From Hydrurus foetidus (lineage: Eukaryota): DNA of 64,000 nt. Positions 10,987 through 39,267 of the stretch are shown in pieces. The position numbers were made by a program, and so were the translations under genes. Numbering within the stretch: position 1 is the stretch's first letter; every line of letters starts with the position of its first letter. The DNA is taken from the NCBI GenBank assembly GCA_900617105.1, contig UYFQ01000842.1:62001-126000 (forward strand), in the 5' to 3' direction. The notes below the pieces were generated by a model. The model was not told the DNA's origin and ran no database searches. It was given only the letters and a program-made list of their open reading frames with translations.

Positions 10987-11014
10987 GAAACTGGCCTCTA
11001 GCCCCCGTGGAATA
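10987..11014 (+). repeat. Intergenic repeat copy 1 (truncated at the left edge of the accessory tract)
   Basis: GAAACTGGCCTCTAGCCCCCGTGGAATA; fuller copies at 15445, 21652 and 48962. Confidence 0.85.
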
Positions 11015-11052
11015 ACACGTCCGGTTTCGCGTTACGGCACACCGCAATCGCG

Positions 11053-11610
11053 ATGGCTGCGTTGGTGCTTTTCTTACCCGATCTTGCAAGTGCGCAAGAT
11101 GGCGGTATCGGAATCAATGGCCAACTATCTATGGTCAACGATCCGCGGGAAGCGGACATGTACCCATGGCTGAAGATCAGCAAACTCTTTGACGCCAAAA
11201 ATCTCCGTGAAGCGAATGGAGAAGTTGTCTACAACCTTTGGCTCGACGGTGATCACACCTATACAGTCAACGGCTACGGGACACATTCCATCATTGGCGA
11301 TGGCGCGGCGTTGCGTGCGTCTGTTGAGCAGGGCCACATTGACCATGCGCAAGCCATGCACGTGATGCATTACTTGCAGTCCCATTCATGGAACATGCAT
11401 CTAGGCTCGTACTTGTCGAACCGGGTTTTCGGTTTGATCAATTCCGAGCGCCTCAATCGCTTCATCTACCCCACATTGGCTGGTCGTAAGACGCTGAGTT
11501 ATCGGGCCTTGACGGCCGGGATGTACACCGTTGGTCTTGTGGCCAGTCTGTTTGTGTCTACCTACCGAACAACGCATGAAAGTGTCATCGTGAGTGCTGC
11601 AACGGCTTGA
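11053..11610 (+). CDS. Chimeric/5'-truncated protein containing the C-terminal motifs of a Hint (intein-like) domain
   Basis: VYNLWLDGDHTYTVNGYGTHS resembles Hint blocks F/G; N-terminus resembles an unrelated signal peptide. Confidence 0.55.
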   Translation: MAALVLFLPDLASAQDGGIGINGQLSMVNDPREADMYPWLKISKLFDAKNLREANGEVVYNLWLDGDHTYTVNGYGTHSIIGDGAALRASVEQGHIDHAQAMHVMHYLQSHSWNMHLGSYLSNRVFGLINSERLNRFIYPTLAGRKTLSYRALTAGMYTVGLVASLFVSTYRTTHESVIVSAATA

Positions 11611-11629
11611 GATACATTTCCTACGTTTC

Positions 11630-11660
11630 AAAAGACCAACTTTCGAGTTGGTTTTTTTTT
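11630..11660 (+). terminator. Rho-independent terminator
   Basis: AAAAGACCAACT-TTCG-AGTTGG followed by T9. Confidence 0.85.
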
Positions 11661-12155
11661 GGATTTGACAACGCAAGACTTTATGCAAACATAGAGTTTT
11701 AACAAAGGACAAAGAATGAAAAAGACACTAATGGGTATTTTGCTTGTGGGAGCGCAGATGTTGCTTGGGGCAGCAATGGCCGCTGGATCAATCGGCATTG
11801 CAGACATCAAGGACGGCGCAGAGTTCTCTGCTGATACGGTGGATATGGGCTTTGGTCCACCCATCATGTTGCCAGCCGGTAAAAAATGGCAGGTTATCAA
11901 GCGGACGGAATTCGAGGCCTTTACAAAGAATTGGTCTATGGTACGGTTCACTTTGCTGAATGCATCTTCCACAGACACGCTTCAAATGGTCACCATTGCA
12001 ACCAATCGATCCCGTGTTGCTGTACCAGCACCGACTGCGGACAAGTGCATCAAAGTACCAGGAACGTTGACCCAAAATTATCGAAGCCTTGGGTCCCCCC
12101 TGTGTCAGACTAGTTGTCGCCTCTAACGAATTTAATCTTAGAGACTCAAACAACA

Positions 12156-12641
12156 ATGAAATCCCAATATTCAGAAGAATTTATCGAACAGGCGCTGGTC
12201 AAGCTGCTGTCCCGTGGGAGCCGATCGGTCAAGTCCGTAGCCCAAGAGTTGAACGTGAATTACCACACAGCGAAGAATTGGTTAAAGCCAGGATCGACAG
12301 TCAAAGCCGATTCGCCATCCGTAAAAGAGAGACGCCCGCAGGACTGGAATGCCCAAGATCAGCTCGTTGCACTGCATGAAACCCACGCCCTGTCTGGCGA
12401 CGCTTTGCAAGCCTGGTGTCGCGCGCGCGGGTTGTTTGCCCACCATCTGACGACCTGGCGGGTAGCTTTTTGCGAGACAGCCAAGGCCGGTCCTGGGGCT
12501 CGGGAACTGCGTACCCTGAAGGACGAGAACGATCAACTAAAGCGTGATCTGTTACGCAAAGAGAAAGCTTTGGCAGAGGCCGCAGCGCTACTGATTCTGC
12601 AAAAAAAGTTCCGTGCGCTGTGGGAGGACGAGGCCAAATGA
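12156..12641 (+). CDS. IS3-family transposase OrfA
   Basis: HTH N-terminus, coiled coil LLRKEKALAEAAALL; AAAAAAG slippery site near 12602-12608. Confidence 0.9.
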   Translation: MKSQYSEEFIEQALVKLLSRGSRSVKSVAQELNVNYHTAKNWLKPGSTVKADSPSVKERRPQDWNAQDQLVALHETHALSGDALQAWCRARGLFAHHLTTWRVAFCETAKAGPGARELRTLKDENDQLKRDLLRKEKALAEAAALLILQKKFRALWEDEAK

Positions 12642-13717
12642 GCACACTCACAGCGCGCAGCAACATCATCGCCCTTGTGGGCCAGGCCATCCAAGACGGG
12701 GCACGCCAAGACCGCGCCTGCGAGGTGATCTCCTTGAGCGAGCGCACTTTGCAGCGTTGGCAGCGCGACCAATCCCGGGGGGACCAACGGCCTATTCGCG
12801 TGCAGGAGCCAAAGAACGCGCTCAGTGCGCAGGAACGCCAGGCTGTTCTGGCAGTGGCTCAGTCGCAGGAGTTCGGGCATCTGTGCCCCAGTCAGATCGT
12901 TCCCCGCTTGGCCGACCAGGGGAACTACGTGGCCTCTGAATCGACGTTTTACCGCGTCCTCAAAGCAGCAAACCAGCTCCAGCACCGTGGGGCCGAGCGT
13001 CCCCGTACCAAGCGCAGCAAACCGCGTGCGCTGGTCGCTACAGCGCCCAGGCAGTTGTTCAGCTGGGACATTACGTACTTGCCCACGCGGGTGGTGGGGG
13101 GCTTCTTTTACCTGTACCTGTTTTTGGACATTTTTAGCCGCAAGATCGTGGGATGGCAGGTCTACGATTGCGAGAGCAGTGAGCTGGCCGGCGAGGTGAT
13201 GCGTGATATTTGCATGCGTGAAAACATCGCGCCCAACCAAGTGGTTCTGCATTCTGACAACGGCAGCCCGATGAAGGGCGCCACAATGCTGGCCACCTTG
13301 CAGGATCTGGGCGTGGTGCCAACGTTCAGTCGTCCCTCGGTGAGCAATGACAACCCGTTCTCGGAATCACTTTTTAAGACCCTGAAATACCGCCCCCATT
13401 ACCCTGCACGGGCGTTTGAGAGTCTTCTGGCTGCACGCCAATGGGTAGGCCAGTTCGTGCACTGGTACAACCGGGAACACCGCCACAGCGCAGTCCGCTT
13501 TGTAACGCCACACGAGCGCCATGAAGGTCTGGAGAATGGTCTGCTGCAGCGCAGAGATGACGTTTACGAAGCGGCCAAAGCAGCCAATCCACAGCGCTGG
13601 AGCGGGGCCACCAGGAACTGGCAGCCGGTGCGTGTTGTCCACCTGAATCCCGATCAGTCGAGTGTCAAGAAAATTCGTCGAAAGGAAGAACGCTCGGAAC
13701 TCAAAAAAGTCGCATAA
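12638..13717 (+). CDS. IS3-family transposase OrfB (DDE integrase core)
   Basis: SWDITY, LHSDNGS, NDNPFSESLFKTLK. Confidence 0.93.
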   Translation: MSTLTARSNIIALVGQAIQDGARQDRACEVISLSERTLQRWQRDQSRGDQRPIRVQEPKNALSAQERQAVLAVAQSQEFGHLCPSQIVPRLADQGNYVASESTFYRVLKAANQLQHRGAERPRTKRSKPRALVATAPRQLFSWDITYLPTRVVGGFFYLYLFLDIFSRKIVGWQVYDCESSELAGEVMRDICMRENIAPNQVVLHSDNGSPMKGATMLATLQDLGVVPTFSRPSVSNDNPFSESLFKTLKYRPHYPARAFESLLAARQWVGQFVHWYNREHRHSAVRFVTPHERHEGLENGLLQRRDDVYEAAKAANPQRWSGATRNWQPVRVVHLNPDQSSVKKIRRKEERSELKKVA

Positions 13718-14512
13718 CACTTACTCTTAGGCGACAACTAGCTTGACATCCTCCGGGTCCAATTTGTATGGTTGCTCAGCGCTACTGTCATTTCCCGACT
13801 TGAAGGCAACGCTTCCCGACATTATTGCTACGACTCTCGAAGATCAATCGTTGGGATTTCTCACCGGGCTACTCAAGCCACTCGCAACTAACTCTGCACT
13901 GTTTGAACGGATTGGTAGCAATCCACTGATCGCAAGCGATGTGATGTATCGGTTTGGAAAACAGAATACTTTCTATTCTGTAATTCTTCGAAACAACACT
14001 GCCTACTCGCCTAAGGCGGATCCTGCTTTGGACGTCAAACTGGATGCATGGGTACGGGACTTCTTTACGACGGCCCATTCGTATTTGAATGAAGATCCAG
14101 TTCTTAAAGTGGCTACGTTGCAAGTGCCTGACATGGGATCATTTGTGCCCACCGTTCAGGTGCCGAAACCGCCATCATCTGATACAGTGAAGATGCGGGC
14201 GCAAAATGGAACGGCACTTTGGATGCACGAAAAGTTTGCCCCACTGCCGAAGAACAACAGAATTCTCTTGGCGACAAAGGATCGAGTACGGTTACGTTGG
14301 TTGACCGGTGGGTGGTTGATGGATTTGATGATAGCTGGTGGAGTGACCTTCAGTTTCCCGAGGGAAGGACTCTACGAGTTCGTCATCATCAACGATGACG
14401 TTTACGAAAACTTCCCGACACAGATGGCCGATTGAGTCGTTCCGAGCCAGCAGTTGCCAATAGAGGCGATTGCTGGCTCCAATCGTTCCAGTCCTTGATA
14501 TTTTGATTCCGC

Positions 14513-15138
14513 TTAGCGGTTGACTGCCAATAGCAGCCTGGCACCAAGCCATCGGCTGATCAATTGGCCAGAGACGTTCTGAGCCTCCTCCAACGAAGTC
14601 TGATTACTGGACCAGCGATTTTCTGGAGAAATAACCATTTGTAGCCCGTTTTGTGCGGAGCGCAGGTGAGGCCACAAAATCGTAGATTCATAGCACCAGG
14701 AAATGTGCACCTGGTGCCCATCTATCACGACGGGCCGATTCGGCCAATTCATAGCGTAGTGCTCATACCGACGCCAAGGGTGCCACATCGTCGCTGGGAA
14801 CGTCACCGCTGCCCGAACACCCTTTAGCGCAGCAGCTATGCGCCGCGATTTTTCGCTGATCCCGAAGACCTGAACGGTGGCCACGTTTCCCAACCCATCG
14901 TCCGCGAGATCATTGGCGCCCACGATGAAGGTAACGTCTCGGTTTCCAATGGCCTGGTTCCACATTGCTTCGGTAAACTCGCTCCGGTCGTAGAGCAGTC
15001 CCTCTGCCAAAAACACTACTGAACCCTCTGGCAGATTGGGTACCGTCTCTGCCACTAGTGCCGGCAGTGCCACATTTCCCACCTGTAGGCGCGACTCCTC
15101 ATCCTTGCCGTTTTCACCAAAATTTGTATTTAGTGCAA
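14513..15138 (-). pseudogene. 5'-truncated TraB-like (Ti-plasmid type, CN-hydrolase/Lnt-like) conjugation gene fragment, copy 1
   Basis: C-terminus SWCYESTILWPHLRS...PENRW...SRWLGARLLLAVNR resembles Ti TraB (ICYEQL..WP..N.WW...W.RLF...A.N, recalled); fused to an IS91 fragment. Confidence 0.55.
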
Positions 15139-15310
15139 ACCATGCGCCGCGTGTTGCACAAGGGGCAGACGCCACGGCCTTTGCAGGAATAGGCCACAAA
15201 GTGTGTCGTACCCGCAGTCATCACACCAGGTCCGGGCAAAGCCGTGGGCAAAGATGCAGCATTCCAGATACTTGAGAAAGGCTTGGCGGACGTAGGGGTT
15301 GGGGGTGTGG
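15139..15310 (-). mobile_element. IS91/ISCR transposase Zn-binding domain remnant, copy 1
   Basis: Translates, with a frameshift, to PYVRQAFLKYLECCIFAHGFARTWCDDCG...VAYSCKGRGVCPLCNTRRMV. Confidence 0.85.
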
Positions 15311-15444
15311 CGGCGGGCATTCCGGTGGTCATCACCTTCCTGCTCATCGCCTCCAGCATGGCGCCGCTGTACCAGGGCAAGCTGTGGGCCTTGGGTGCGC
15401 TGCCCTAGCGGCGCTACACCGCCGCCATGGCGCAGAATTTATAA
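15311..15444 (+). repeat. Internally deleted copy of the gatC 3' end
   Basis: Matches 10719-10986 with ~108-bp and ~27-bp deletions; ends GCGCAGAATTTATAA as gatC does. Confidence 0.92.
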
Positions 15445-15500
15445 GAAACTGGTCGCTAGCCCCCGTGGAATATTCGCGAGCAGCTACTAAATATGTAGCA
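15445..15500 (+). repeat. Intergenic repeat copy 2
   Basis: GAAACTGGTCGCTAGCCCCCGTGGAATATTCGCGAGCAGCTACTAAATATGTAGCA. Confidence 0.85.
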
Positions 15501-15504
15501 TTCT

Positions 15505-15665
15505 CGCGCTAGACCACCACGCGGGTCACGCGCACCCCGGGCTGGGAGCCGTCTACTTTGTTGACAGCGATGGCGCAGATGGCGCTTTGGCAACGATAGC
15601 GCAGCTTGAAACCCGGCCAGTTGGCAGGCAGGCACGGCGCAAAGTGCAAGGCCCTCGCCTCCAAG
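15505..15665 (-). repeat. Internally deleted copy of the cgs 3' end
   Basis: Encodes LHFAPCLPANWPGFKLRYR...GVRV then a stop; matches 39268-39505 with an 81-bp deletion at CGCAC. Confidence 0.92.
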
Positions 15666-15699
15666 CTGCGCGTTCCGTTTAGTGTGCACCGTTTTGCCA

Positions 15700-16695
15700 T
15701 TACGGATTCAGTGTTTGCTGAATTCCAGACAGCACCCATCCGCTGTTTCCCTGGCGGGACTTCATCAAATGCCAGACCTCGTCAATAGCCTCATCCAGCG
15801 CGGTGGCATCGTCGCGGATCACGGCCTTGAAACGCACACTCACCAAATAGCGGTCGGCATCCTCATCTACTTCAATCACTTCAGCTTGCACACTGACTAC
15901 ATCCGTTTTTTGGCGCACTGTGCCGCGATCGGCCAATTCCAGCTTGATTTCGGCAAACATTTCTGGCGTGGTGAACTGGCGGATATCGTTCAGGTCTTCT
16001 GCATCATTGGCAGCTTGCAGACGAATAAAGTTCACCTTGGCATTGCGCTCAAAGCCCGCCGTGTCAAAGTCCGCGGGAATGCTGCTTGCAGGATGGCTGG
16101 TGCCACCTACAGAAGCCCCGATACCTGAACCAATCGCCGAGCCGATACCCGTGCCGATACTTGCTCCCGAGGCGCCGCTGCCCGACGCAGGCATATAGAC
16201 TTTGTATGCAGGGGCGCTATGTGAAGGGTTTTGATTGTCAGCGTCGCGGGCATTGCCTGCGTTCAATCGGGCGTACTGCATGCCAGGTGGAGCTACGGGG
16301 TTTGATTGCTGTGCCGCCGCGCGCTTGCGCATAAAAAAGCCAATTGCTGCGACAACTGCTGCGGCAAGCAAACCCATCATCACCATAGACGCCAATTCAT
16401 CACCAAACCCCATGTGGGACGCCAGCGCGGCTAAGCCCAAGCCCGCGGCGAGCCCGGCAATAGGGCCCATCCACGAACGCGATGGCGCTGCTGCAGCCGC
16501 ACCGGCTGCACCAGCGGCAGCCGGTGTGGTGGCTGCGGCTGGTGTTACTGTGGAGGAGGCTTTGTCAGGCGTGGCCTGGCGCTGTGTACCCATGGATTTA
16601 CCGGAGCCGATTCGCTTTGCAGCCTCAGCGTCCAGAGTTACCGTTGACAAGCCTATGGCAAAAGTCACGGCTAAAAGTGAAAGCAAGCGCTTCAT
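15700..16695 (-). CDS. Tim44-domain membrane/exported protein
   Basis: AEAAKRIGSGKSMG, SWMGPIAGLAAGLG, IPADFD..GF...FIRLQAA, EVWHL...W.LSGIQQ. Confidence 0.88.
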   Translation of the reverse strand: MKRLLSLLAVTFAIGLSTVTLDAEAAKRIGSGKSMGTQRQATPDKASSTVTPAAATTPAAAGAAGAAAAAPSRSWMGPIAGLAAGLGLAALASHMGFGDELASMVMMGLLAAAVVAAIGFFMRKRAAAQQSNPVAPPGMQYARLNAGNARDADNQNPSHSAPAYKVYMPASGSGASGASIGTGIGSAIGSGIGASVGGTSHPASSIPADFDTAGFERNAKVNFIRLQAANDAEDLNDIRQFTTPEMFAEIKLELADRGTVRQKTDVVSVQAEVIEVDEDADRYLVSVRFKAVIRDDATALDEAIDEVWHLMKSRQGNSGWVLSGIQQTLNP

Positions 16696-16740
16696 ATAAA
16701 TCTCCTAAAAGTGCAAAAAAAGAAACCGTTTGCTTGGGCT

Positions 16741-17265
16741 TTATTCCGCCGTTAAGCGTGCACGGCGCTTTAACGCCACGCGCAACCGCCAAATCAGCTT
16801 GACCCCGACATAGCCCAGAGCCGCGCCACCTACAGCAAACATCCCCATGCCCAAGACGGTGGGCCATCCAAACTCGGCAAGCCAAGTCGAAGCGCCGCCA
16901 CTGGCAGCAAGCGCCTGGGTCGCGGGTTCGCCCAATACCAGCGCGCCCGCTTGGTACGCCAACCAAAGCCAGAATCCGATCGTCAGAGGATTGGTCACCA
17001 TCGTCATCGCCGCAGCGGCGGGAATGTTGGCGCGCCACCAGGTGCAATGCGCGGCAGCCACCACGATTTGTGCAAACGGAATGACGAACGCCCAAAAAGT
17101 ACCCACGGCAACGCCACGTGCTACGGATTCATGTTGCAGCCGCCACAGCTGCGGATCAAGCAGTCGGCTGGCCACCGGCCTCAGCCACGGGTGTGCGGAC
17201 AAAGCGTCACGGTCGGGCAACGCGTTGTTGAGCCGATCTTTCCAAAGCTGGGGTTTTGCTGTCAT
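16741..17265 (-). CDS. DUF2062-family membrane protein
   Basis: LWRL..ESVARGVAVG, RANIP..TMVTNPLT. Confidence 0.8.
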   Translation of the reverse strand: MTAKPQLWKDRLNNALPDRDALSAHPWLRPVASRLLDPQLWRLQHESVARGVAVGTFWAFVIPFAQIVVAAAHCTWWRANIPAAAAMTMVTNPLTIGFWLWLAYQAGALVLGEPATQALAASGGASTWLAEFGWPTVLGMGMFAVGGAALGYVGVKLIWRLRVALKRRARLTAE

Positions 17266-17423
17266 CAGGCCGCACTCTCTATTAAGAACAGTCGTGATGG
17301 TGTCGTGCAAAGGCCCAATAAGACAGCATGCAAATGCGTGTGAATACTCTTGTTTTTACGAACTAAATATTTGAATTCATCAGTATAAAAATGGGTATAT
17401 TTCTTGTGGCGCGATCTGATGCA

Positions 17424-17482
17424 GTGCCGTCTTTCTGGCACACAGGCAACCGCAAATCGCATGGTTCTCTTCACAGAGTGCC
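17424..17482 (+). ncRNA. Candidate structured cis-regulatory RNA in the terC leader
   Basis: Hairpin GTGCCG/TGGCAC, then a three-way junction GGCA-[ACCGC AAATC GCATGGT]-T-[CTCT TCAC AGAG]-TGCC ending 26 nt before the ATG. Confidence 0.5.
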
Positions 17483-17508
17483 CAAATAACTTACGTTTCA
17501 CGGCTTTT

Positions 17509-18483
17509 ATGCAAACAATTGCTCCCCTGTGGCTCTGGGCCACCTTTGTCGCCATCGTGTTGGTGTCACTTTTTATCGATTTCGTGGTTTTGCGAAAGCA
17601 GGGGTCTCACGACATCAGTGTCAAAGAGGCACTGAATTGGTCCTTGGTCTGGATCGCACTGAGCTTTATGTTCAACGGTCTTTTCTGGTGGGCAGTCAAG
17701 GACACCACTGGCTCGGTGGAAATCGCCAATGCAAAATCCTTGGAATTTTTGACCGGTTACTTGATCGAGAAGTCTTTGGCGGTCGACAATATTTTTGTCT
17801 TCCTGCTGATCTTTACCTACTTCGCCGTGCCGACGCACTACCAAAAGCGGGTGCTGATGATCGGCATCATTGGTGCCATCGTCTTGCGCACCATCATGAT
17901 CTTGGTGGGCGGTTGGTTGTTGGCCGAGTTTCACTGGATCTTGTATGTGTTTGGTGCGTTTCTCATCCTCACGGGCATGAAGATGTGGTGGGCTGCGGGC
18001 AAAGAACCCGACCTGAACGACAACCCTGCGTTGAAGCTGTTGCGCAAGCTGCTGCCGGTAAGCAAAAACTACGATGCTGAGAATTTTTGGACGGTAGAAA
18101 ACGGCAAAAAAATAGCCACGCCCTTGCTGATGGTGATTTGCCTTATCGCGCTGACGGACGTCATTTTTGCAGTGGATTCGATCCCAGCCATTTTTGCGAT
18201 CACCAATGACCCGTTCATTGTCTTAACCAGCAACGTCTTTGCCATATTGGGTTTGCGCGCAATGTACTTTTTGCTGGCTGCGGTGGCCAATAAGTTCCAC
18301 CTGCTCAACTATGGCTTGGCTGTGATTCTGGTGTTTATCGGTACCAAGATGTGCCTTATCGATTTGTACAAAATCCCCGTGAGTGTGTCGCTGGGTGTGG
18401 TGGTCGGTATCTTGGCGTTGACCATGCTGCTGAGCGTGCGTACGGCCAAAAAACGTGATGTGCAATCAGAGGGCAGGCTTTAA
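17509..18483 (+). CDS. TerC/Alx-family membrane protein
   Basis: GYLIEKSLAVDNIFVF, DVIFAVDSIPAIFAIT, TSNVFAILGLRAMYF. Confidence 0.93.
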   Translation: MQTIAPLWLWATFVAIVLVSLFIDFVVLRKQGSHDISVKEALNWSLVWIALSFMFNGLFWWAVKDTTGSVEIANAKSLEFLTGYLIEKSLAVDNIFVFLLIFTYFAVPTHYQKRVLMIGIIGAIVLRTIMILVGGWLLAEFHWILYVFGAFLILTGMKMWWAAGKEPDLNDNPALKLLRKLLPVSKNYDAENFWTVENGKKIATPLLMVICLIALTDVIFAVDSIPAIFAITNDPFIVLTSNVFAILGLRAMYFLLAAVANKFHLLNYGLAVILVFIGTKMCLIDLYKIPVSVSLGVVVGILALTMLLSVRTAKKRDVQSEGRL

Positions 18484-19350
18484 AAGGCGCAGTACAAGTG
18501 GATGCTGCACTTTCTTTTCGGTACCAATCGCAAAGAAGTGCTCTTTCACACCCTCGCAGTGCCCCAGTCGTTTGACGGCGTAGTGGGTCAGCAAGTCTTC
18601 ATGCACCCACTCTGCGGCCGGAAAAATACCCATCCCGTTGGCCCCAAAAGTCTTCAATAGAGCGCTGTCTTCAAACTCGCCCACGATTCGGGGGCGTATC
18701 GCGTGTTGCTCGAACCATTGGTCTAGCCGCGCGCGAACAGCGGTGTGTGCGGTGGGCAGCAACAAAGGCAGTTGCGCGAGGCATTGGGGGTAGTTTTTCC
18801 CCGCCGCTTTGACCAACGCCGCCGCGCCGTACCAGCCCACCGCCGATGAACCCAAATTGTGGCTATACAGCTTGATATTGGGATTCACGGGTGCAGGGCG
18901 GTCTGACAACACCACATCCAGGCGGTGCAGCGCCAAATCCCCCAGCAGGTCGTCCAACTCTCCTTCGTGGCACATCAGCCGCAAGTTGGGCTCATCTATC
19001 ACGGGTTGCATCAGCCGGTGCACCACCAGCTTGGGTAACCCGTCGCAAATACCCACTGCCAGACGCACGGTGGGCGCGCTCACGGCGTCTCGCACCAAGG
19101 CAGGCAGTTCCTCACCGAGTTGAAAAATCTGGTCGGCTTGCTGCAGTGCGGCCAAGCCTGCATCGGTCAAAACCAAGCCGCGCCCGGCTGGCTTCAGTAG
19201 CGCGTAGCCCAAAGAGCGCTCCAGCTCGCGCACCTGGGCGCTCACGGTTTGCACCGCCATATCCAGCTTGCCAGCTGCCCGGGTGATACCTCCTTCTTTG
19301 GCCACTACCCAAAAGTAATACAGGTGCTTGTAGTTAAAGGGTGTACTCAT
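18466..19350 (-). CDS. NhaR-like LysR-family regulator
   Basis: FNYKHLYYFWVVAKEGGITRAA, GEFEDSALLKTFG. Confidence 0.9.
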   Translation of the reverse strand: MSTPFNYKHLYYFWVVAKEGGITRAAGKLDMAVQTVSAQVRELERSLGYALLKPAGRGLVLTDAGLAALQQADQIFQLGEELPALVRDAVSAPTVRLAVGICDGLPKLVVHRLMQPVIDEPNLRLMCHEGELDDLLGDLALHRLDVVLSDRPAPVNPNIKLYSHNLGSSAVGWYGAAALVKAAGKNYPQCLAQLPLLLPTAHTAVRARLDQWFEQHAIRPRIVGEFEDSALLKTFGANGMGIFPAAEWVHEDLLTHYAVKRLGHCEGVKEHFFAIGTEKKVQHPLVLRLLKPAL

Positions 19351-19450
19351 ATGTAGGTTTTTCGGGACTATGGGTAAGAAATTATCTGCTTTTTTAGGAT
19401 CTACATAGGCTCTATCGTCAAGCCTTGTTTTACCTACCGGAGACATTGCA

Positions 19451-19792: not shown

Positions 19793-19881
19793 ATCTGGCA
19801 CTCGACCGTATACGTACACCATGAATTTTTTCTACTTGCCCTTTATCGCCGCGATCTTGAACCGCCATCAAGGTGATTCCA

Positions 19882-20052
19882 ATGAGTGAACTAGCCGTCC
19901 CAGACATTGCCATCGGCGCACTGACATTGGCCGCTGCCGTTCTGTATGCCGCCTGGCACGAATACGCTACCAAGAATCATCGCGATGCCAAATTGCTGGC
20001 GGCTGTCGGTGCATTCAGTCTGGTTGGCGGTGCGGCGGCTTGGATTTGGTGA
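19882..20052 (+). CDS. Small 56-aa two-TM membrane protein (absent from the ORF track)
   Basis: MSELAVPDIAIGALTLAAAVLYAAWHEYATKNHRDAKLLAAVGAFSLVGGAAAWIW; AAGGTGA RBS. Confidence 0.6.
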   Translation: MSELAVPDIAIGALTLAAAVLYAAWHEYATKNHRDAKLLAAVGAFSLVGGAAAWIW

Positions 20053-29191: not shown

Positions 29192-29194
29192 TCG

Positions 29195-30365: not shown

Positions 30366-32366
30366 ATGTTCAACATTCAAGCTATGTCCCAGCTCGTGTT
30401 CGGCCGCCTTGGTCTGGACGCAATCCCGCAAGATCCAATCGTCCTCGTCACCTTGGTCATGGTGATGTTGGGCGGTAGCGCATTGTTTGCAGCAATGACT
30501 TACTACCGTGCCTGGGGAACGCTATGGAACAACTGGATTACCAGCATTGACCACAAAAAAATCGGCATCATGTACATCATCCTGGGGCTGGTGATGCTGT
30601 TCCGCGGCTTCGTTGATGCCCTCTTAATGCGCGCCCACCAAGCCGCGTCCTTTGGGGACAACAGCGGGTTCTTGCCGCCACACCATTACGACCAAATTTT
30701 TACCGCCCACGGCGTACTGATGATTTTTTTCGTCGCCATGCCGCTGGTTACTGGCTTCATGAATTTCGTGGTGCCCTTGCAAATTGGCGCGCGGGATGTG
30801 GCGTTCCCGTTTCTCAATAACTTCAGTTTCTGGATGACTGCCAGCGGCGCGGTGTTGATGATGGTGTCCTTGTTTGTGGGTGAGTTCGCGGCCACAGGCT
30901 GGTTGGCTTATCCGCCGCTGTCTGGCATTTTGCAAAGCCCGGGCGTGGGGGTGGATTACTACATATGGGCCCTGCAGATTGCGGGGGTGGGCACGTCGCT
31001 GTCCGGGATTAATTTGATCGCGACCATCATCAAAATGCGCGCACCCGGCATGACCATGATGAAAATGCCGGTTTTCACCTGGACCGCCCTGTGTACCAAC
31101 GTGCTGATCGTGGCCGCATTCCCGGTACTTACGGCAGTGTTGACTCTACTGGCACTGGACCGCACGGTGGGCACCAACTTTTTCACCAACGACCTCGGCG
31201 GCAACGCCATGATGTATGTCAACCTGATCTGGATTTGGGGCCACCCAGAGGTCTACATTCTTATCTTGCCGGCCTTTGGAATTTTTTCAGAGGTGGTTTC
31301 AACCTTCAGCCACAAGCGGCTCTTTGGCTACGCCTCCATGGTCTACGCCACCGTGGTGATTACCGTACTGTCTTATGTGGTGTGGTTACACCATTTTTTC
31401 ACCATGGGTTCAGGGGCCAGCGTGAATGCTTTTTTTGGCATCACCACCATGATCATTTCCATCCCCACGGGGGCAAAGATCTTCAACTGGCTGTTCACCA
31501 TGTACCGTGGCCGCATTGTGTTTGATGTGCCGATGCTGTGGACGATTGGTTTCATGGTCACGTTTGTGATTGGCGGCATGACCGGTGTGTTGCTGGCGGT
31601 GCCTGCAGCCGACTTCGTGCTGCACAACAGCTTGTTTCTGATTGCCCACTTCCACAATGTGATCATTGGCGGCGTGCTGTTTGGCATGTTTGCCGGAATT
31701 AACTACTGGTTCCCCAAGGCGTTTGGTTACAAGTTGGATGCTTTTTGGGGCAAGTGCTCTTTCTGGTTCTGGCTGGTTGGGTTTTACCTGGCCTTCATGC
31801 CGCTGTATGTGCTGGGCTTAATGGGCGTGACCCGCCGCATGAGCCACTTCGACGATCCCTCGCTGCAGATCTGGTTTCAGGTAGCCGCCTTTGGCGCAGT
31901 GCTGATTGCAATTGGCCTGGCTTGCTTCGTGATCCAACTGGTGGTGAGTTTTCGCAACCGGGAGCAGCTGCGCGACGTAACGGGTGACCCGTGGGATGGC
32001 CGCACACTGGAGTGGTCTACCGCTTCGCCACCGCCCGACTACAACTTTGCATTCACCCCCATCGTGCATGAACTGGATGCCTGGCATGACATGAAGCAGC
32101 GCGGCCATCAGCGTCCGGTGGAGGGTTTCAAGGCCATCCATATACCAAAAAACACGGCGGCTGGTTTCATTATTTCAATGCTGTGCGCCGTGGTGGGCTT
32201 TGCGGTTATCTGGCACATGTGGTTGGTTGCAGCACTGGCGTTTGCAGTGACATTGGCGACTGTGGTGGCACACACCTTTAACTACAAGCGCGACTTTTAC
32301 ATCCCGGCAGACGAGGTTCAACAAACCGAGAACCAGCGTACGCGGGCCCTAGCTGCCCAAGCCTGA
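30366..32366 (+). CDS. cyoB: Cytochrome bo3 ubiquinol oxidase subunit I
   Basis: [41 protein letters not shown]. Confidence 0.98.
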
Positions 32367-32393
32367 ACTTTACCCTTTGAAGCATTAATCACC

Positions 32394-33017
32394 ATGCAGA
32401 CTTCTACCACCTTGGCGGCCGCTAACCCGGTGCGCTTCTATGACAACGGCGATCACCACCCCCAGCAAGGCACCTTGCTCGGGTTCTGGATCTACCTGAT
32501 GAGCGACTGCCTGATCTTCGCGGTGCTGTTTGCGGTGTATGCCGTGCTGGGGCGCGGGTATGCGGCGGGGCCTTCGGGTGCCGACCTCTTCAACCTGCCG
32601 CTGGTTGCAGCCAACACCGCCTTGTTGCTGTTTTCCTCGGTGACCTATGGCCTTGCCATGATTGGCATGCAGCACGGCCACAAGAAAGCAGTGCTTAGCT
32701 GGCTGGCCATCACGGGTGTGTTGGGCTTGGGCTTTCTGAGTTTGGAACTGTACGAGTTTTCGCACCTGATCCACGAAGGTGCAGGCCCGCAGCGCAGCGC
32801 GTTTCTCTCGTCATTTTTCACCCTGGTCGGTACGCACGGTCTGCATGTGACCTTTGGCACGATTTGGCTGGTCACCCTGATGTTTCAGGTAAGTCGATTT
32901 GGACTGACCACCGCAAACAAACGCCGACTGATGTGTCTGTCCATGTTCTGGCACTTTCTGGACGTGATCTGGATTGGTGTTTTCACCTTTGTTTACTTGA
33001 TGGGAGTGCTGCCATGA
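32394..33017 (+). CDS. cyoC: Cytochrome bo3 oxidase subunit III
   Basis: [24 protein letters not shown]. Confidence 0.96.
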
Positions 33018-33385
33018 GCGAGCATCTGAACGCGACCGACGACCAAGGCGGCTACCACGCCAGCGTAAAAGGGTATTTGACGGGATTTTTGTTATCGGTT
33101 GTGCTGACCGCCATCCCATTTTGGCTGGTCATGGCCAAGGTACTGCCTAGCTCCGGCATCACCGCCCTGGTAGTTTTGGGCTTTGCGGCGGTGCAAATCG
33201 TGGTGCACATGGTTTACTTTTTACACATGAACACGCGGGTCGAGGGCGGCTGGTCCATGCTTGCGTTGTTGTTCACTGGCGTGCTGGTGCTGATCATGTT
33301 GTCGGGCTCCATTTGGGTGATGTACCACCTGAACACCAACATGATGCCGGTGCACGACATGACCGAAATGCGTAACATGCCCTGA
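33014..33385 (+). CDS. cyoD: Cytochrome bo3 oxidase subunit IV
   Basis: [29 protein letters not shown]. Confidence 0.95.
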
Positions 33386-33388
33386 ACC

Positions 33389-34195
33389 ATGTCTGATGAC
33401 ACTGACGATCTCCCATTACCCGCCAAGCCCGCGCTGCTGCTGGCTCTGTTGGTTTTAGGGAGCGTCATCTTTGTGGGCTTGCTAGCGCTAGGGGTCTGGC
33501 AGGTGCAGCGTCTGCAGTGGAAGCAGGCCCTGATTGCACGGGTCGAACAACGGGTGCATGCCGCACCAGTGGCGGCACCGGGTCCGGCGCAGTGGGCTGC
33601 CATCAATCGGGCGTCGAACGAATACAGCCGGGTTCAAGTGGCCGGGCATTTTGACCACACGCGGGAAACCTTGGTGCGCGCCAGCACCGAGCTTGGCAGC
33701 GGCTTCTGGGTCATGACGCCAATGCAGACCAGCGCTGGCTTTTGGGTTCTGGTGAATCGCGGGTTCGTCTCGGCGGCGTTGCGTGCGCAGGGTTCGCGTC
33801 CCGATAGCGGTGACTTGCAGGTCATCAGCGGCTTGCTGCGGCTTAGCGAGCCAGGTGGCAGTTGGCTGCAGTCCAACGATGCGGCGTCTGGTCGCTGGTA
33901 TTCGCGCGATGTGCAGGCCATAGCGGCCAGCGTGGCCCTGGACGCGCAACCCGACGCGCGCGGTACGACTCAGGTGGCACCCTACTTTATTGACGCTGGC
34001 GCATCGCAAGATGCTGCAGCCTGGCCGCGCAGGGGTCTTACGGTGCTCAGTTTCAATAACAACCACGCCGTGTACGCCTTGACCTGGTTTGTACTGGCCG
34101 CCATGGTGGCGGCCGCCATGGCGTATCTTGTACATTCCGAACGGCAACTGCGCAGGGTGCCGGTGACTGGTAAGCGGACGACCTTCCATGCGTGA
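33389..34195 (+). CDS. SURF1-family protein
   Basis: LGVWQVQRLQWK, VLVNRGFV, NNHAVYALTWF. Confidence 0.92.
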   Translation: MSDDTDDLPLPAKPALLLALLVLGSVIFVGLLALGVWQVQRLQWKQALIARVEQRVHAAPVAAPGPAQWAAINRASNEYSRVQVAGHFDHTRETLVRASTELGSGFWVMTPMQTSAGFWVLVNRGFVSAALRAQGSRPDSGDLQVISGLLRLSEPGGSWLQSNDAASGRWYSRDVQAIAASVALDAQPDARGTTQVAPYFIDAGASQDAAAWPRRGLTVLSFNNNHAVYALTWFVLAAMVAAAMAYLVHSERQLRRVPVTGKRTTFHA

Positions 34196-35543
34196 CCCGT
34201 TGCAATTGTTGCCGCTGTATGCCGCCGACGATGGCCTGACCGGCGGCGGCGTCACCACTGAAATTCTGGCAGGACGTAATAACCTGCTGCAGCTGGTCCA
34301 ACTACGTTGGCTGGCCGTGGGTGGCCAGTTGGCGACGATTCTGGGCGTGCAGTTTGTATTGGGTGCGCAGCTCCCGCTGGCAGAAATGTTGTCGCTGGTG
34401 GCGGTGCTCTGTCTTTTTAACTTGATTAGCTGGCTGCGCTTTCGCATGGCTTCGGGCGATATTGCCAACGTCGAGTTATTCACGGGCCTGCTGGTCGATG
34501 TGGGGCTGCTTAGTGCGTTGCTCTACTACAGCGGTGGCATCGCCAACCCGTTTATATTTTTGTATCTGTTGCAAGTCGCGGTGGGCGCGGTGCTACTCAA
34601 GCCGCGCTACATCTGGGCGATGGTGGTGTTGACCAGCCTGTGCTTTGTCCTGCTGACCCTCTGGAACCGCCCCCTGATCCTGCCGGATCTGGTGAGCCCG
34701 ACACTGTCGGTGCACTACATCAGCGGCTTGCTGGTGTGCTTCACGCTCAATGCGGCTCTGCTGGTGATCTTTATACACCGCATTGGCAGCAACCTGCGCC
34801 AGCGCGATGCCCGGCTGGCCGATCTGCGCCAGCGCGCGGCAGAACAAGAGCATATCGTTCGCATGGGCCTGCTGGCTTCGGGCGCGGCACATGAGCTGGG
34901 CACGCCGCTGGCCACCTTGTCCGTGATCTTGGGTGACTGGGTCCACAGCGTGCCCCTGTCCCAAGATCCAGTGATGCTGGATGAAATCAAGATGATGCAG
35001 CTGCAATTGCAGCGCTGCAAGACCATCGTTAGCGGTATCTTGATGTCGGCGGGCGAGGCGCGGGCAGAAGCTCCCGTGGCGACAACCTTGCACCTGTTTT
35101 TGGACCAGCTGGTGGACGAATGGCGCAGCGCCCGTCCGCTGCAGATACTGCAGTACGCGCGCAGCGGCTTCACAGATCGGCCGATCATCTCGGACTCTGC
35201 GCTCAAGCAGATGGTGGGCAATCTGCTGGACAACGGCGTAGATGCAGCGCCGGCCCAGCCCTTGCAGCTGCGTGTTGAGTGCACCAACAACTGGCTCATC
35301 TTGAGTGTCCGCGACGCTGGTGCGGGCTTTAGCGCTGAAATGTTGAATAATTTTGCAAAACCCTACCATTCCACTAAGGGTCGCCCTGGCAGCGGCTTGG
35401 GGCTTTTTCTGTCGGTCAATGTGGCGCGCACGCTGGGCGGCAGGATTGACGCCAGCAACATGGCAGGTGGAGGGGCAGAAGTGGTGGTCAGACTGCCACT
35501 GGCTGCGCTCACCCTGCGTGAAAGGAACGTACGTGGAAGCTGA
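34188..35543 (+). CDS. RegB/PrrB-like sensor histidine kinase
   Basis: LRWLAV.GQ, GGIANPF, AAHELGTPL, GSGLGLFL. Confidence 0.88.
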   Translation: MRDPLQLLPLYAADDGLTGGGVTTEILAGRNNLLQLVQLRWLAVGGQLATILGVQFVLGAQLPLAEMLSLVAVLCLFNLISWLRFRMASGDIANVELFTGLLVDVGLLSALLYYSGGIANPFIFLYLLQVAVGAVLLKPRYIWAMVVLTSLCFVLLTLWNRPLILPDLVSPTLSVHYISGLLVCFTLNAALLVIFIHRIGSNLRQRDARLADLRQRAAEQEHIVRMGLLASGAAHELGTPLATLSVILGDWVHSVPLSQDPVMLDEIKMMQLQLQRCKTIVSGILMSAGEARAEAPVATTLHLFLDQLVDEWRSARPLQILQYARSGFTDRPIISDSALKQMVGNLLDNGVDAAPAQPLQLRVECTNNWLILSVRDAGAGFSAEMLNNFAKPYHSTKGRPGSGLGLFLSVNVARTLGGRIDASNMAGGGAEVVVRLPLAALTLRERNVRGS

Positions 35544-36069
35544 TCGGCGTTTGCTCATTGTCGAAGACGACGATGCTTTTGCCACGACCCTGAGCCGTTC
35601 GTTCGCAAAGCGTGGCTATAAGGTTCAACGCGCTGCAGGTCTGGCCGAGGTTCCGGCCCTGCTTTTGACGCACCGTCCCCATTACGCGGTGGTTGATTTG
35701 AAGCTGGCAGCTGGTGCCTCTGGCCTGAGTTGTGTCCAGGTGCTGCACGCGTACGATCCGTTGATGATGATCGTGGTGCTGACCGGCTATGCCAGCATCG
35801 CGACTGCGGTTGAGGCGATCAAGCTGGGTGCGCGGCATTACTTGGCCAAGCCCGCCAACACCGACGATATCGAAGAGGCTTTTTCCCGCGCCGAGGGTGA
35901 TGCGGCAGTGGGGCTGACGTCGCGCACCACCTCCATCAAGACGCTGGAGTGGGAGCACATTCACGAAGCCATGGCGGCCGCTGACTTTAATATTTCAGAG
36001 ACCGCCCGGCGCCTGGGTATGCATCGCCGCACCTTGGCGCGCAAGCTGGAGAAGCAGCGCATCAAATAG
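35533..36069 (+). CDS. RegA/PrrA-like response regulator
   Basis: LTGYASIATAVEAIKLGA, LEWEHI, NISETARRLGMHRRTL. Confidence 0.9.
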   Translation: MEADRRLLIVEDDDAFATTLSRSFAKRGYKVQRAAGLAEVPALLLTHRPHYAVVDLKLAAGASGLSCVQVLHAYDPLMMIVVLTGYASIATAVEAIKLGARHYLAKPANTDDIEEAFSRAEGDAAVGLTSRTTSIKTLEWEHIHEAMAAADFNISETARRLGMHRRTLARKLEKQRIK

Positions 36070-36218
36070 CCCTGTAAATTTAGCGATGGCCGGCGCCAGC
36101 ACATGCACCAGCGAATACATCAGCAATCGGCAATTAAGGCCACCAGCAGTCCAGCTTTCAGGACAGTCCACAGCGCAAGCGCCGCGAGGAGATAAGAGGC
36201 TGCGACCGGTGCTGTCAA

Positions 36219-36244
36219 TTTTGCGGATGTGCTCATCCGCAAAA
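36219..36244. terminator. Bidirectional hairpin between convergent cassettes
   Basis: TTTTGCGGATG-TGCT-CATCCGCAAAA. Confidence 0.7.
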
Positions 36245-36248
36245 TGCA

Positions 36249-37820
36249 TCAAGTGCCCACGGCCGGCAGCGTCAGGGTCACTTGCGTCCCTACGCCCAGT
36301 TGGCTGATTACCGCGACCTGTCCCCCATGCAATTCCACAATGCGTTTAACAATGGCTAAGCCCAGGCCTTTTCCGCCTTCGCCGGTGGCGGGCGCAACGC
36401 TTTGGCGGCTTTGGTAGAAACGGTCAAACAGATGTGGCAGATCGGCGGCCGCAATGCCGGGCCCGGTGTCACCTACCCGCACCTGCACGTGTGCGCCAGT
36501 GCTCACGGCTTCCAGTGTGATGGTGGCCCCTGCGGAGCAGAATTTCAAGGCGTTGTCGACCAAATTGGCAATCGCCCGCTCAAACAACTCCACATCGACC
36601 GCCGCCAACGGGGTGGTCTGTGCAGACATGACCGAATGAATCCGAACGCCTGCCTTGGCCGCACGCGCGGTGAAGCGCAGCGCCACGTCGTCCAGCAATT
36701 CCGAGACATCCATGAGTTCTGGGTGCAGTTTGAATTCGGGTTCGTCCAACTGCGCCAGGTCGCCCATGGACTGCACCAACCGCGCCGCGTTCTGGGTGTT
36801 GCGCAGCGCGACCTCCACCAACTGGCGGTCACCGTCGCGCGCCGCATCTCCCACCCAGCGGTTTTCCAACGTTTCCAGGCAGGCGGTGGTGGCAGTCAAG
36901 GGGGAGCGCAGGTCGTGAGACAGGTTGCTGACGCCTTCGCGCCGGAAATGGTCCAGGTGGCGCAGCGCACTCCATTGCGCGCGCAAGGTGTCCAACATGG
37001 CACGGACGCCGCTGGTCAGTTGACCGAATTCGTCAGGCTGGGTCTTCGCAGTCGCTTCAAAAATAGCGGGCTGCGTGCTGGAGGCCGCATATTCCTGCAA
37101 GCCGTGGCGCGACACGGTGGCCACCGCTTCCGTGAGCTGGGCCAAGGGGCGGGTGACGGCGGCCGTGACCCAGGCGGCCAACAACGTAGTAAGCCCCACC
37201 ACCAGTAAAATAAGGATGAGGGTTGGCTGCGCAAAAGTGCTTTGCAGCGCTGCTAGGCCGCCCTGTGGCAAGGTGCCTTTATGGCATACCAAGTACAGGT
37301 AACCGTCCACCTTGCTGTCGTTGCGGATGATGCTGCGCCGCAAGGGCCGCGCGGCAATTACCGCGTTGCTGTCCATGCGCTCCGGGTCGTCGCCCATCAC
37401 ATACGGCATGGGCGGGGTGGCGACGGCTTCGAGTACAGGTGCCAAGGCCACTTTGAAGCCCTTGGGTAGTGGCACGTCGCCGGTGGACGCTACTACGGTG
37501 CCGTGGCTGTCCAGTAAATACAGCTGGGTGTCCGGCTCAAACAGCACCAGGGTTTTCAGGAAATCAACGAACTCGTCCGCGTAGCGCTCCTGCATCTCGA
37601 AAATATCCGGGTGGAGTGCAACCACCCGCTCCAGAAAAGCGCTCGATCGGTAGTAGGTGGCCTCGTGCTCCAAGCGTTGAAACGCGAGCAGCACTGTGGC
37701 GATGACGCCCACCGCGGTGAGCAAACCGGTCAGAAAAATGGTCAAGGCAATCTTGAGGCGGACGGACACAGGCGTGGTTCTTTCAGCGGGGTGCGTCACG
37801 CATCTTGTAGCCGGCACCAC
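36249..37820 (-). CDS. HAMP-containing sensor histidine kinase (start uncertain, possibly GTG at 37769)
   Basis: SHDLRSPL, NLVDNALKF, DTGPGI, GLGLAIVKRIVELHGG. Confidence 0.9.
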   Translation of the reverse strand: MVPATRCVTHPAERTTPVSVRLKIALTIFLTGLLTAVGVIATVLLAFQRLEHEATYYRSSAFLERVVALHPDIFEMQERYADEFVDFLKTLVLFEPDTQLYLLDSHGTVVASTGDVPLPKGFKVALAPVLEAVATPPMPYVMGDDPERMDSNAVIAARPLRRSIIRNDSKVDGYLYLVCHKGTLPQGGLAALQSTFAQPTLILILLVVGLTTLLAAWVTAAVTRPLAQLTEAVATVSRHGLQEYAASSTQPAIFEATAKTQPDEFGQLTSGVRAMLDTLRAQWSALRHLDHFRREGVSNLSHDLRSPLTATTACLETLENRWVGDAARDGDRQLVEVALRNTQNAARLVQSMGDLAQLDEPEFKLHPELMDVSELLDDVALRFTARAAKAGVRIHSVMSAQTTPLAAVDVELFERAIANLVDNALKFCSAGATITLEAVSTGAHVQVRVGDTGPGIAAADLPHLFDRFYQSRQSVAPATGEGGKGLGLAIVKRIVELHGGQVAVISQLGVGTQVTLTLPAVGT

Positions 37821-38499
37821 GCACCGTCAAAATCAACTCCGGGCGCAGCGGGTCGGTTTCCAGCTTGGCGCGCAGGCGGTTGATGTGGGTGGTGACCGTG
37901 TGTTCGTAGCCGTCGTGGGTGTAGCCCCACACGCCATTCAACAGTTGTCCCCTTGAGAAAACCCGACCCGGATGCTGTGCGAAATACAGCAGTAAATCAA
38001 ACTCCAGCGCGGTGAAGTCCAGCGCCTTGCCCCGCATCAGGACCTCGCGTCGCACCGGCAATATCTCCAGCGCACCATTGATGAGCACCGTGGACTGGGT
38101 GTGCGCATTCAGCTGCGCGGTATGCAGCAGCTCGGCCCGGCGCAGCAAGGCTTTGACGCGCGCCAACAGTTCTGCCAACGAGAAGGGTTTGGTTAGGTAG
38201 TCGTCGGCGCCCAATTCCAGGCCCAGCACCCGGTCCAGCTCGGTGGACTTGGCGGTCAGCATCAGGATGGGCGTGCTGTTACCCCGGGCGCGCAACGCTT
38301 TGCACACCTCCAGACCATCCAGGCCTGGCATCATCAAATCCAGAATCAATACATCGTGGGCGCGCTCGGTTTCGGCCGCCAGGGCCGCCAGGCCGTCACC
38401 CACTTCGGTGACCTCATACCCCGCGCTTTGCAGGTTGAGCACCAACAAATTGCGGATATCTACTTGGTCATCGGCGACCAGGATTCTTTTCATGTCCAT
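37783..38499 (-). CDS. OmpR-family response regulator
   Basis: LDLMMPGLDG, GADDYLTKPF, HINRLRAKLE, TVRGAGY. Confidence 0.93.
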   Translation of the reverse strand: MDMKRILVADDQVDIRNLLVLNLQSAGYEVTEVGDGLAALAAETERAHDVLILDLMMPGLDGLEVCKALRARGNSTPILMLTAKSTELDRVLGLELGADDYLTKPFSLAELLARVKALLRRAELLHTAQLNAHTQSTVLINGALEILPVRREVLMRGKALDFTALEFDLLLYFAQHPGRVFSRGQLLNGVWGYTHDGYEHTVTTHINRLRAKLETDPLRPELILTVRGAGYKMRDAPR

Positions 38500-38621
38500 A
38501 CCTTCTGTCCGTCTCGGGCCGAGTTTCTTACAGAAATGTTATCTGATTGTTATGTTTCGAGAGGGTGGCGTGAGCTTGGACTGCCAAAGTCTACCTAACG
38601 ACTTTTCCACGAAAGCTTGCC

Positions 38622-39152
38622 ATGATGACCGCCACCCAAATCACCCCGATTGACTCCACCGTCTCCGCCGTCGTGTGGAGCGACATGGTGGCACATCGCA
38701 ACTATCTGGTGCGCTTTGCCCGGCGCAAGCTGCACGATCCCACACTGGCGGAAGACGTTGTGCACGACGTCTTCGAGGCAGTGATGGTAGGGCGGGCTGC
38801 ATTTGCCGGGCGTTCGGCTCTGCGCAGCTGGTTGACGGCCATTTTGAAAAACAAGATTGTGGATGTAATCCGCCAGCGGGCCCGCTACGACAGCCTGGAC
38901 GATGAATCGGACGAGGATGGGGCCGTGCAAGCAGAGAGCCCCTTTGCCCGGCCTGACGAGCTGGCCGAGCAGCGCCAGAAGCTGTACCAGACCATGCAAC
39001 GCATCGGCACTTTGCCCCAGGGCCTGCGCGATGTGATGGAGTTTCGGGTGCTGCAGGACGAGTCATCTCAAGAGGTGTGTGAGCGCCTGCAGATCAGCGA
39101 AGCCAGCCTGTTTGTGCGGCTGCACCGCGCCCGCAAACAGCTGATGTGCTGA
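38622..39152 (+). CDS. ECF sigma-70 family factor
   Basis: AEDVVHDVF, LRSWLTAILKNK, VRLHRARKQL. Confidence 0.88.
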   Translation: MMTATQITPIDSTVSAVVWSDMVAHRNYLVRFARRKLHDPTLAEDVVHDVFEAVMVGRAAFAGRSALRSWLTAILKNKIVDVIRQRARYDSLDDESDEDGAVQAESPFARPDELAEQRQKLYQTMQRIGTLPQGLRDVMEFRVLQDESSQEVCERLQISEASLFVRLHRARKQLMC

Positions 39153-39178
39153 GGAGCTGAATCAAAGGGAGCACAAAA

Positions 39179-39229
39179 ATGCGAGTATTGCTAATAATCG
39201 ACGCGGACAACTTCGATGCCCCAGCCTGA
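39179..39229 (+). pseudogene. Possible N-terminal stub of a NYN/PIN-like gene
   Basis: MRVLLIIDADNFDAPA* after a GGGAG RBS, at the right edge of the accessory tract. Confidence 0.35.
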
Positions 39230-39267
39230 TCAGCAGGTTGTCAAAAAATAACCCCCACATCCTTGCG

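Follow-up and report, generated by a model that had tools for sequence, protein, structure and literature searches.

The stretch of DNA considered here (the window) comprises 64,000 nucleotides of contig UYFQ01000842.1 (positions 62,001 to 126,000, forward strand) in the Hydrurus foetidus assembly GCA_900617105.1; its host is Rhodoferax-like, the closest GatC, 95% identical in amino acids, being that of Rhodoferax sp. TS-BS-61-7 (L012). Within it, four gene modules and the composite scars that separate them lie between the 3' ends of two anchor genes: gatC, a galactitol-type phosphotransferase system (PTS) IIC gene that terminates a xylose-type ABC/kinase/isomerase cluster, and cgs, of the cyclic beta-1,2-glucan synthase type (Table 1). 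On the plus strand, the left part reads gatC with half of an intergenic repeat; module A; pieces of traB, of an IS91-family insertion sequence (IS) and of gatC, followed by the repeat and a piece of cgs (junction 1); and module B. The right part reads an IS4 remnant with pieces of traB, IS91 and gatC and the repeat (junction 2); the dab module (C); a miniature IS91 element between two ends carrying the replication origin, oriIS (junction 3); the cyo module (D); and cgs. A preliminary description, made from the letters alone, had recognised the ordered unit of TraB-like fragment, IS91 zinc-finger fragment, gatC 3' end and repeat at two junctions, and self-BLAST and domain searches bore it out, the zinc-finger piece matching the Zn_Tnp_IS91 domain; the third IS91 derivative that it placed between dab and cyo is likewise there. 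It overlooked the cgs 3' piece in junction 1, the IS4-type remnant, the two oriIS ends and the half repeat at gatC.

Table 1. Features of the gatC–cgs interval and its anchors, in window coordinates
Feature	Position	Strand	Remarks
gatC-like PTS IIC gene, left anchor	9577..10986	+	EIIC-GAT Pfam; 95% amino-acid identity to L012
REP-like repeat, left half only	10993..11015	+	broken where imported DNA starts; in L012 a whole repeat follows gatC
Module A: two genes, 185 amino acids and a second split by IS3	11053..14435	+	unassigned family; low GC
IS3-family element, intact	12114..13737	+	inside cargo gene; terminal inverted repeats, CTAG duplication
Junction 1, traB, C-terminal half	14513..15139	-	open to stop codon
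Junction 1, ISPps1-like IS91 transposase, codons ~47-102	15139..15313	-	frameshifted, without ori end
Junction 1, gatC 3' end, three pieces	15306..15444	+	two internal deletions; 90% to the window's gatC
Junction 1, whole REP-like repeat	15451..15501	+	
Junction 1, cgs 3' end copy	15510..15666	-	internally deleted, 81%
Module B: Tim44-like, DUF2062, TerC/Alx, NhaR-like LysR, S30AE-like, zinc-ribbon genes	15700..20487		
IS4-type remnant (DUF4372)	20488..20886	+	deleted, fused to junction 2
Junction 2, traB half	20887..21359	-	87-bp in-frame deletion; ~21084-21320 a highly diverged allele tract
Junction 2, ISPps1-like transposase, codons ~13-102	21359..21573	-	internal deletion common to junction 3
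Junction 2, gatC 3' pieces and whole REP-like repeat	21571..21706	+	
Module C: dabA, dabB (inorganic-carbon transporter), LysR regulator	21795..26973		
Junction 3, miniature ISPps1-like element	27005..27617	-	collinear transposase pieces, both ends; well-kept oriIS end at 27005
Solo degenerate oriIS end, second IS91 subtype	27679..27735	-	
Module D: MFS transporter, cyoABCD, SURF1, two two-component pairs, ECF sigma factor	27794..39152		
cgs (GH94), right anchor	39268..48084	-	

Self-BLAST pairs 14580-14813 with 20887-21120 at 86% and 14923-15499 with 21143-21706 at 79%, and over the two junctions as a whole 677 of the 817 aligned bases agree (about 83% identity). The offset between them, first given as 6220 bp, has that value at the joint of traB and IS91 only; it is 6307 at the left end and about 6207 at the right, deletions having arisen separately in each copy. 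The joint lies in 35 bp that are exactly identical, as had been claimed (15121-15155 and 21341-21375), but this identity is nothing special: an exact-match run of at least 35 turns up in 15.6% of 5000 shuffles (P=0.16), i.e., not beyond chance, and P0001 and P0003, database proteins with the same traB/IS91 fusion, differ at three residues around it. A conserved recombination site is thereby ruled out, and the joint is best seen as one inherited deletion endpoint. Both junctions also share a 27-bp deletion in gatC and the fusion point, while their further deletions differ, and from these shared derived deletions it follows that they descend from one ancestral scar. Since oriIS and the catalytic domain are both absent from them, they are fossils, able to serve only as homology. 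Their gatC copies begin at differing positions, extend some 270 bp into the gene and abut transposase coding DNA, and there is no constant attachment (att) core across the module borders. Junction 1 holds a complete copy of the gatC-repeat-cgs empty site; a derivation of its gatC piece from the L012 lineage was rejected, all pieces together being 90% identical to the window's gatC versus 84% to that of L012, with the first piece alone closer to L012.

The fused scar was found in this lineage only (P0001, P0003): searches of 159 genomes of the genus did not turn it up, and two metagenome scans were also blank. The TraB protein P0002 gave one weak, partial match in the same 159 genomes (E 4e-4); among metagenome contigs, 596 pattern matches to the TraB alignment yielded 0 confirmed cases, and the gatC-end pattern had 0 matches. 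An IS91 5' fragment 7.3 kb downstream of gatC in genome G013 has none of the accompanying parts (gatC piece, repeat, traB) and is taken to be unrelated.

The intergenic repeat of the preliminary description turns out to be a genome-wide element resembling repetitive extragenic palindromes (REP-like): it makes up 39 of the 43 matches of the region in genome G001, a count that is a lower bound with 40 of 322 candidates scored. "REP-like" is a descriptive label and not one derived from a library (Rfam being blank), and the hairpins predicted on folding are weak, with z of -1.1 to -2.6 in the whole copies and +0.2 in the half copy. Only its left half stands 3' of the native gatC, and the whole repeat is found in L012 and in junctions 1 and 2. 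As the repeat adjoins the cgs end in G015, in a contig of metagenome run X1 and in junction 1, the adjacency of repeat and cgs is old. The gatC anchor is itself patchy, with 14 of the 159 genus genomes having the gene.

The modules are multigene blocks with regulators of their own, unlike the single-gene cassettes of an integron. Module A stands out by a guanine-plus-cytosine (GC) content of 0.50-0.55 versus 0.62; its proteins (11053-11610; 11716-14435) have no Pfam, NCBIfam or plasmid match and the 185-residue one is blank in Atlas, and GC content and adjacency are the only pointers to a plasmid origin. As had been noted, the sole intact transposase is that of the IS3 element inside a cargo gene (NCBIfam score 193.9 bits, cut-off 160; CTAG duplication); it has about fourfold depth in run X8 and is skipped by an X1 contig that joins 12090 to 13765. 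This is a late insertion, which splits the second module A gene in frame. The gene order of module B recurs in several genus genomes at 73-77% identity, and X1 holds module B sequence at 98%. The dabAB-LysR block (21801-26580) matches 13438-18217 of L189 (genome G077) at 99.2%, i.e., 40 differences in 4780 bases, with the homology ending within the last codons of dabA; in G077 it occupies a different chromosomal place, adjoining an M13 peptidase gene, the side facing that gene being free of scars, which points to recent transfer of a carbon-uptake module. For the start of module D, relatives reach only 68-72%, in 11 of the 159 genus genomes. A short frame at 39178-39230, between the extracytoplasmic function (ECF) sigma gene and the cgs end, presumably resembles the start of an NYN-type gene and is a possible further remnant bordering this module.

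Relatives do not carry one fixed content at this site. In L012, cgs is missing from the corresponding place, and ompA, BON, Crp-like and PAS-kinase genes lie between gatC and the chemoreceptor gene found at 49021 in the window, so that the variable interval is about 38 kb at the distance of L012. In X1, whose contigs match gatC, cgs and module B at 96-98% identity, module A is present without IS3, junction 1 is represented by an allele 8-12% diverged, one contig diverges from the window precisely where the IS4 remnant begins (20488), and a 13.9-kb contig runs from cgs leftwards through the repeat into an ori-like piece in place of module D. Missing cover over dab and cyo in X1 and X3 was not taken as absence, and runs X4-X7, with small word shares, were left out for habitat. 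The same site thus carries different module sets in relatives, which is the mark of an additive flexible genomic island.

That the repeats could be an assembly artefact, as might be suspected from the fact that no contig of run X8 spans the stretch, is extremely unlikely. Unique X8 contigs of depth 36-42 with 0-1 differences (13726-15149, 15423-21369 and 21665-27089) break at the sequences common to both junctions, the two copies differ at 17% of sites, and X1 independently holds the diverged junction 1 allele. X8 may be the window's own source and tests the assembly only, not as an independent sample; since its single-copy contigs cover both junctions, the repeats are real.

All IS91 remnants in the window are of the ISPps1 family: their DNA is 81-87% identical to that of annotated ISPps1-type transposases, which are Y2/HUH enzymes with an N-terminal zinc-binding domain. 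They are fragments only: an intact catalytic IS91 transposase is absent from the window, which has just collinear pieces with deletions and frameshifts. All four remnants are co-oriented, with the ori side towards the module at their left. A profile of the oriIS end run over the 64-kb window has its best two sites at 27042 (36.2) and 27716 (17.1), both on the strand of the transposase remnants, and its best unrelated site at -3.8. The end motif, which lies downstream of these transposases, occurs in 31 of the 159 genus genomes (0 in a reversed control), and is read as oriIS because it lies about 160-170 bp past the stop codon, as described for Sphingobium (PMC5737581). Junction 3, which is without a gatC piece, is ordinary by itself, since the genus abounds in internally deleted IS91 derivatives and solo ori ends: its DNA is matched in 57 of the 159 genomes. 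Its mini-element at 27005 could at most be moved by a transposase acting in trans.

Several further observations concern this family. Over 27251-27306, X8 contigs with a summed depth of about 1100 extend into undeleted transposase-like sequence, a possible candidate source of such a transposase, and X8 also has a second mini-element that is 97% like junction 3. At 26990-27012 here, in L142 (~1500-1575) and in L088, the oriIS end is trailed by short tandem copies of its final bases, and L142 in addition carries a 47-bp duplication of the ori end; the family seems to leave stacked or solo ori ends. Miniature derivatives with several internal deletions beside the ori end recur (L120, L129, L137, L140, L141), and those of the genus may form a non-autonomous class.

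A published route by which IS91-like elements build arrays is that of the IS common region 1 (ISCR1): replication from oriIS runs beyond the terminator, a second round produces a circle that includes new cargo, and homologous recombination at a common segment then brings this circle in, once or repeatedly (PMC7707992; PMC3575428). By analogy, the locus can be read as a strain-variable stack of imported modules at the gatC-cgs repeat, grown by ISCR-type capture and homologous rescue, and we consider this reading moderately probable. Read-through at the terminator of an ISPps1-like IS91 element would have extended into the gatC 3' end and the repeat, whereupon IS91, gatC end and repeat would have moved next to new genes, and the resulting circle would have returned to the site by ordinary homologous recombination, with the gatC end and repeat as common segment. 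A first circle made up of gatC end, half repeat, module A, traB and IS91 would have recombined into gatC, leaving the half repeat at the left and gatC end, whole repeat and cgs at the right. Later rounds would have added modules B-D, and short-homology deletions would have eroded the elements, one of them fusing traB to the transposase and removing oriIS. The gatC 3' end would thereby play the role of the conserved segment.

The capture reading is favoured because the orientation of the remnants, the oriIS ends and the half repeat at gatC fit it, and in these respects the IS91/ISCR seeding first proposed stands, the mechanism itself being what we infer. A capture unit is marked by host DNA in place of its terminator side, recurring as a direct repeat at the close of each cargo block; in keeping with this, transposase 5' pieces are fused to the gatC 3' end and repeat at junctions 1 and 2, though not at junction 3. 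The old adjacency of repeat and cgs, the 27-bp gatC deletion and fusion point common to junctions 1 and 2, the diverged tract in traB (see below) and the 99.2% match of the dab module at another place also count in its favour, as do the published precedents of ISCR1 and Sphingobium. The predicted arrangement (half repeat at the left; cargo; ori-IS91; gatC end, whole repeat and cgs at the right; one orientation) matches the window and the 13.9-kb X1 contig, in which ori-like piece, repeat and cgs end have the order and orientation that capture predicts. Several points weigh against it. The window has no intact IS91, and an intact IS91-gatC fusion intermediate was not found in the 159 genus genomes or the two metagenome scans. 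Junction 2, having no ori, is not itself a rolling-circle product, so that its duplication needs another route. The cgs side of module D is without IS91 or repeat scar, and 32 ori ends gave no target-site preference beyond the element's terminal GT, so that a cryptic terminator at the half repeat, resembling the target site, is only putative. The X1 evidence comes from short contigs that are not joined to each other and are ascribed to one strain by their depth of 15-22 alone, and the 44-base piece of the repeat at the X1 joint has many copies. Given how frequent IS91 debris and solo ori ends are in the genus, some may be passengers.

This last thought can be carried further: the site could be an ordinary additive hot spot at a tolerated intergenic position, grown by homology-anchored and illegitimate recombination, with the IS91 pieces as passengers and one IS91/traB/gatC scar of single origin duplicated by unequal exchange or by IS4 insertion. 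The common ancestor of junctions 1 and 2 and their lack of ori are what it expects, as is the frequency of deleted IS91 pieces in the genus; moreover, junction 2 starts inside the IS4 remnant, at the end of which the X1 contig departs, and the traB half has roughly single-copy depth in X1. Islands that grow additively and share near-identical cassettes between species are well described in Alteromonas (PMC4898812). Such a hot spot does not, however, predict four co-oriented remnants with their ori towards the cargo, nor a half repeat at the left with gatC end, whole repeat and cgs end at the right, and we regard it as possible though unlikely.

Repeated gene 3' ends at module borders are also the usual sign of tandem integration, and the modules might be tandem site-specific islands whose integrase was lost or is encoded in trans, with the gatC 3' end or repeat as att and the gatC copies as displaced att arms. 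The integrase of GIsul2 has been shown experimentally to move an ISCR-related unit (PMC9376610). Integrase families had no match among the 65 main open reading frames and 97 stop-free gap frames of the 64-kb window, not even a remnant; a trans-encoded enzyme would be compatible with a search of that extent. An Rfam scan of 9500-49500 found nothing either, tRNAs included, so that the island is, as first described, free of both; the sole ARAGORN call, a tRNA-Gly at 43350-43448, lies inside the cgs frame without Rfam support and is probably spurious. What makes tandem integration improbable is the gatC copies themselves, which lack a constant core, vary in start point, reach so deep into the gene and are fused to transposase DNA, together with the gatC-free junction 3 and the other gatC loci of the genus, which have no displaced copy.

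A separate history is recorded in the traB halves. The fragment is 41% identical to a Rhodoferax ferrireducens plasmid TraB and scores 134 bits against the PRK13825 model of NCBIfam (cut-off 500), in the C-terminal half only, with full-length relatives of 404-411 residues at 40-68% identity. Over 154 codons the two copies have a ratio of nonsynonymous to synonymous change (dN/dS) of 0.12, unexpected for a duplicated pseudogene, and the excess is localised to one tract: the proportion of synonymous differences (pS) is 0.73 across 75 codons versus 0.12 beside the joint and 0.22 beyond the tract, with 0 of 500 permutations equally extreme, and that of nonsynonymous differences (pN) is 0.03-0.10. 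The IS91 part of the scars looks neutral (pS 0.16, pN 0.08, p=0.21). The difference in the tract has the size of that between two functional alleles, and the simplest reading is that one scar acquired a tract of a different functional traB allele by crossovers in flanking conserved stretches. P0003, compared at the protein level only, is a patchwork of junction 1-like and junction 2-like residues. These patterns show that a traB scar recombined with foreign DNA; a two-sided tract is what gene conversion leaves, and entry of cargo alongside is not implied.

The overall dN/dS of 0.12 and the open frame across the joint (228 residues in junction 1, 267 in junction 2, and likewise in P0001 and P0003) could also mean that the truncated traB half is a functional gene under selection and that the repeats are kept for that reason. 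The confinement of the synonymous excess to one tract, with a pN of 0.08-0.10 that equals the 0.08 of the dead IS91 part, speaks against this; so does the state of the copies, junction 2 being minus 29 internal and about 20 terminal residues and both altering otherwise conserved residues, while the strongest relatives are mostly full-length, at about 400 residues. We hold selection on the half gene to be highly improbable.

Dead chimeric scars may act as standing, multi-purpose landing pads, each entry leaving a new pad, so that the site grows without a recombinase of its own; this is put forward only tentatively. Under the same doubtful proposal, conjugative elements of diverged sequence would be caught by the plasmid half and ISPps1 circles by the IS91 half, while the chromosomal address would be set by the host half.

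Outside the island, the window has a direct repeat of 72% identity (62237-62665 and 63541-63969) in neighbouring genes of periplasmic-binding-protein type, probably an old paralog pair.

Among known systems, the nearest are the ISCR1 complex class 1 integrons, in which conserved segment, IS91-like element, ori, cargo and conserved segment recur in series and growth is by read-through rolling-circle capture and homologous rescue with no target duplication, a route that we infer here (PMC7707992, PMC3575428). Here, by contrast, a gatC 3' end with REP-like repeat, on the chromosome, takes the place of qacEdelta1/sul1 as conserved segment; searches found neither IntI nor attC; and the IS91 copies, ISPps1-like, all dead and 10-17% diverged, accompany metabolic cargo. 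The sdpA region of Sphingobium herbicidovorans MH is similar in its environmental host and in its IS91-built tandem clusters, imperfect repeats with IS91 pieces at their bounds; a circle was observed, one-ended transposition was proposed for the entry of cargo, and the genome also has an ISPps1-like element (PMC5737581). Its elements are intact and plasmid-borne; those of the present locus are fossils in a chromosome, joined to traB and to the ends of host genes. ISPps1 itself is recorded on a catabolic plasmid (PMC1713258). With the additive flexible genomic islands of Alteromonas the locus shares a fixed site, modules that vary in number, partially repeated anchor-gene sequence and near-identical modules in different species (here dab at 99.2%), but those islands lie mostly at tRNA/tmRNA genes, in contrast to the protein gene and repeat that anchor this one and the IS91 remnants at its borders (PMC4898812). 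In GIsul2 / CR2-sul2, too, a unit related to ISCR lies in an island on the downstream side of a housekeeping gene, yet it requires an integrase and att cores, neither of which was found in the window (PMC9376610).

Neither this locus nor the use of a host gene's end as common segment on a chromosome is described in the literature listings searched, which leave out most subscription papers. The locus works like an ISCR complex array and is neither an integron nor an active element; the earlier epithet "integron-like", with its implication of defined cassettes and sites, is not supported, as the frames searched have no integrase family and the self-comparison no attC-like repeat family, and the modules are multigene. 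The mechanism is already known, and what is new is the chromosomal setting, the metabolic cargo and the segment of gatC end and REP-like repeat.

Knowledge of how ISCR elements build "complex" arrays comes mainly from resistance plasmids. If the capture reading is true, this route would also build chromosomal accessory islands in environmental bacteria, an ordinary gene end with a REP-like repeat would serve as the conserved segment, and core-like physiology, namely DabAB carbon uptake, bo3 oxidase and TerC/Alx, would have been mobilised. The foreign traB tract in a dead scar is a rare direct record of debris still recombining with incoming DNA, and, should such scars act as landing pads, modules for carbon uptake and oxidase would be moving between Rhodoferax species. 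Island finders keyed to integrases or tRNA ends would overlook such loci.

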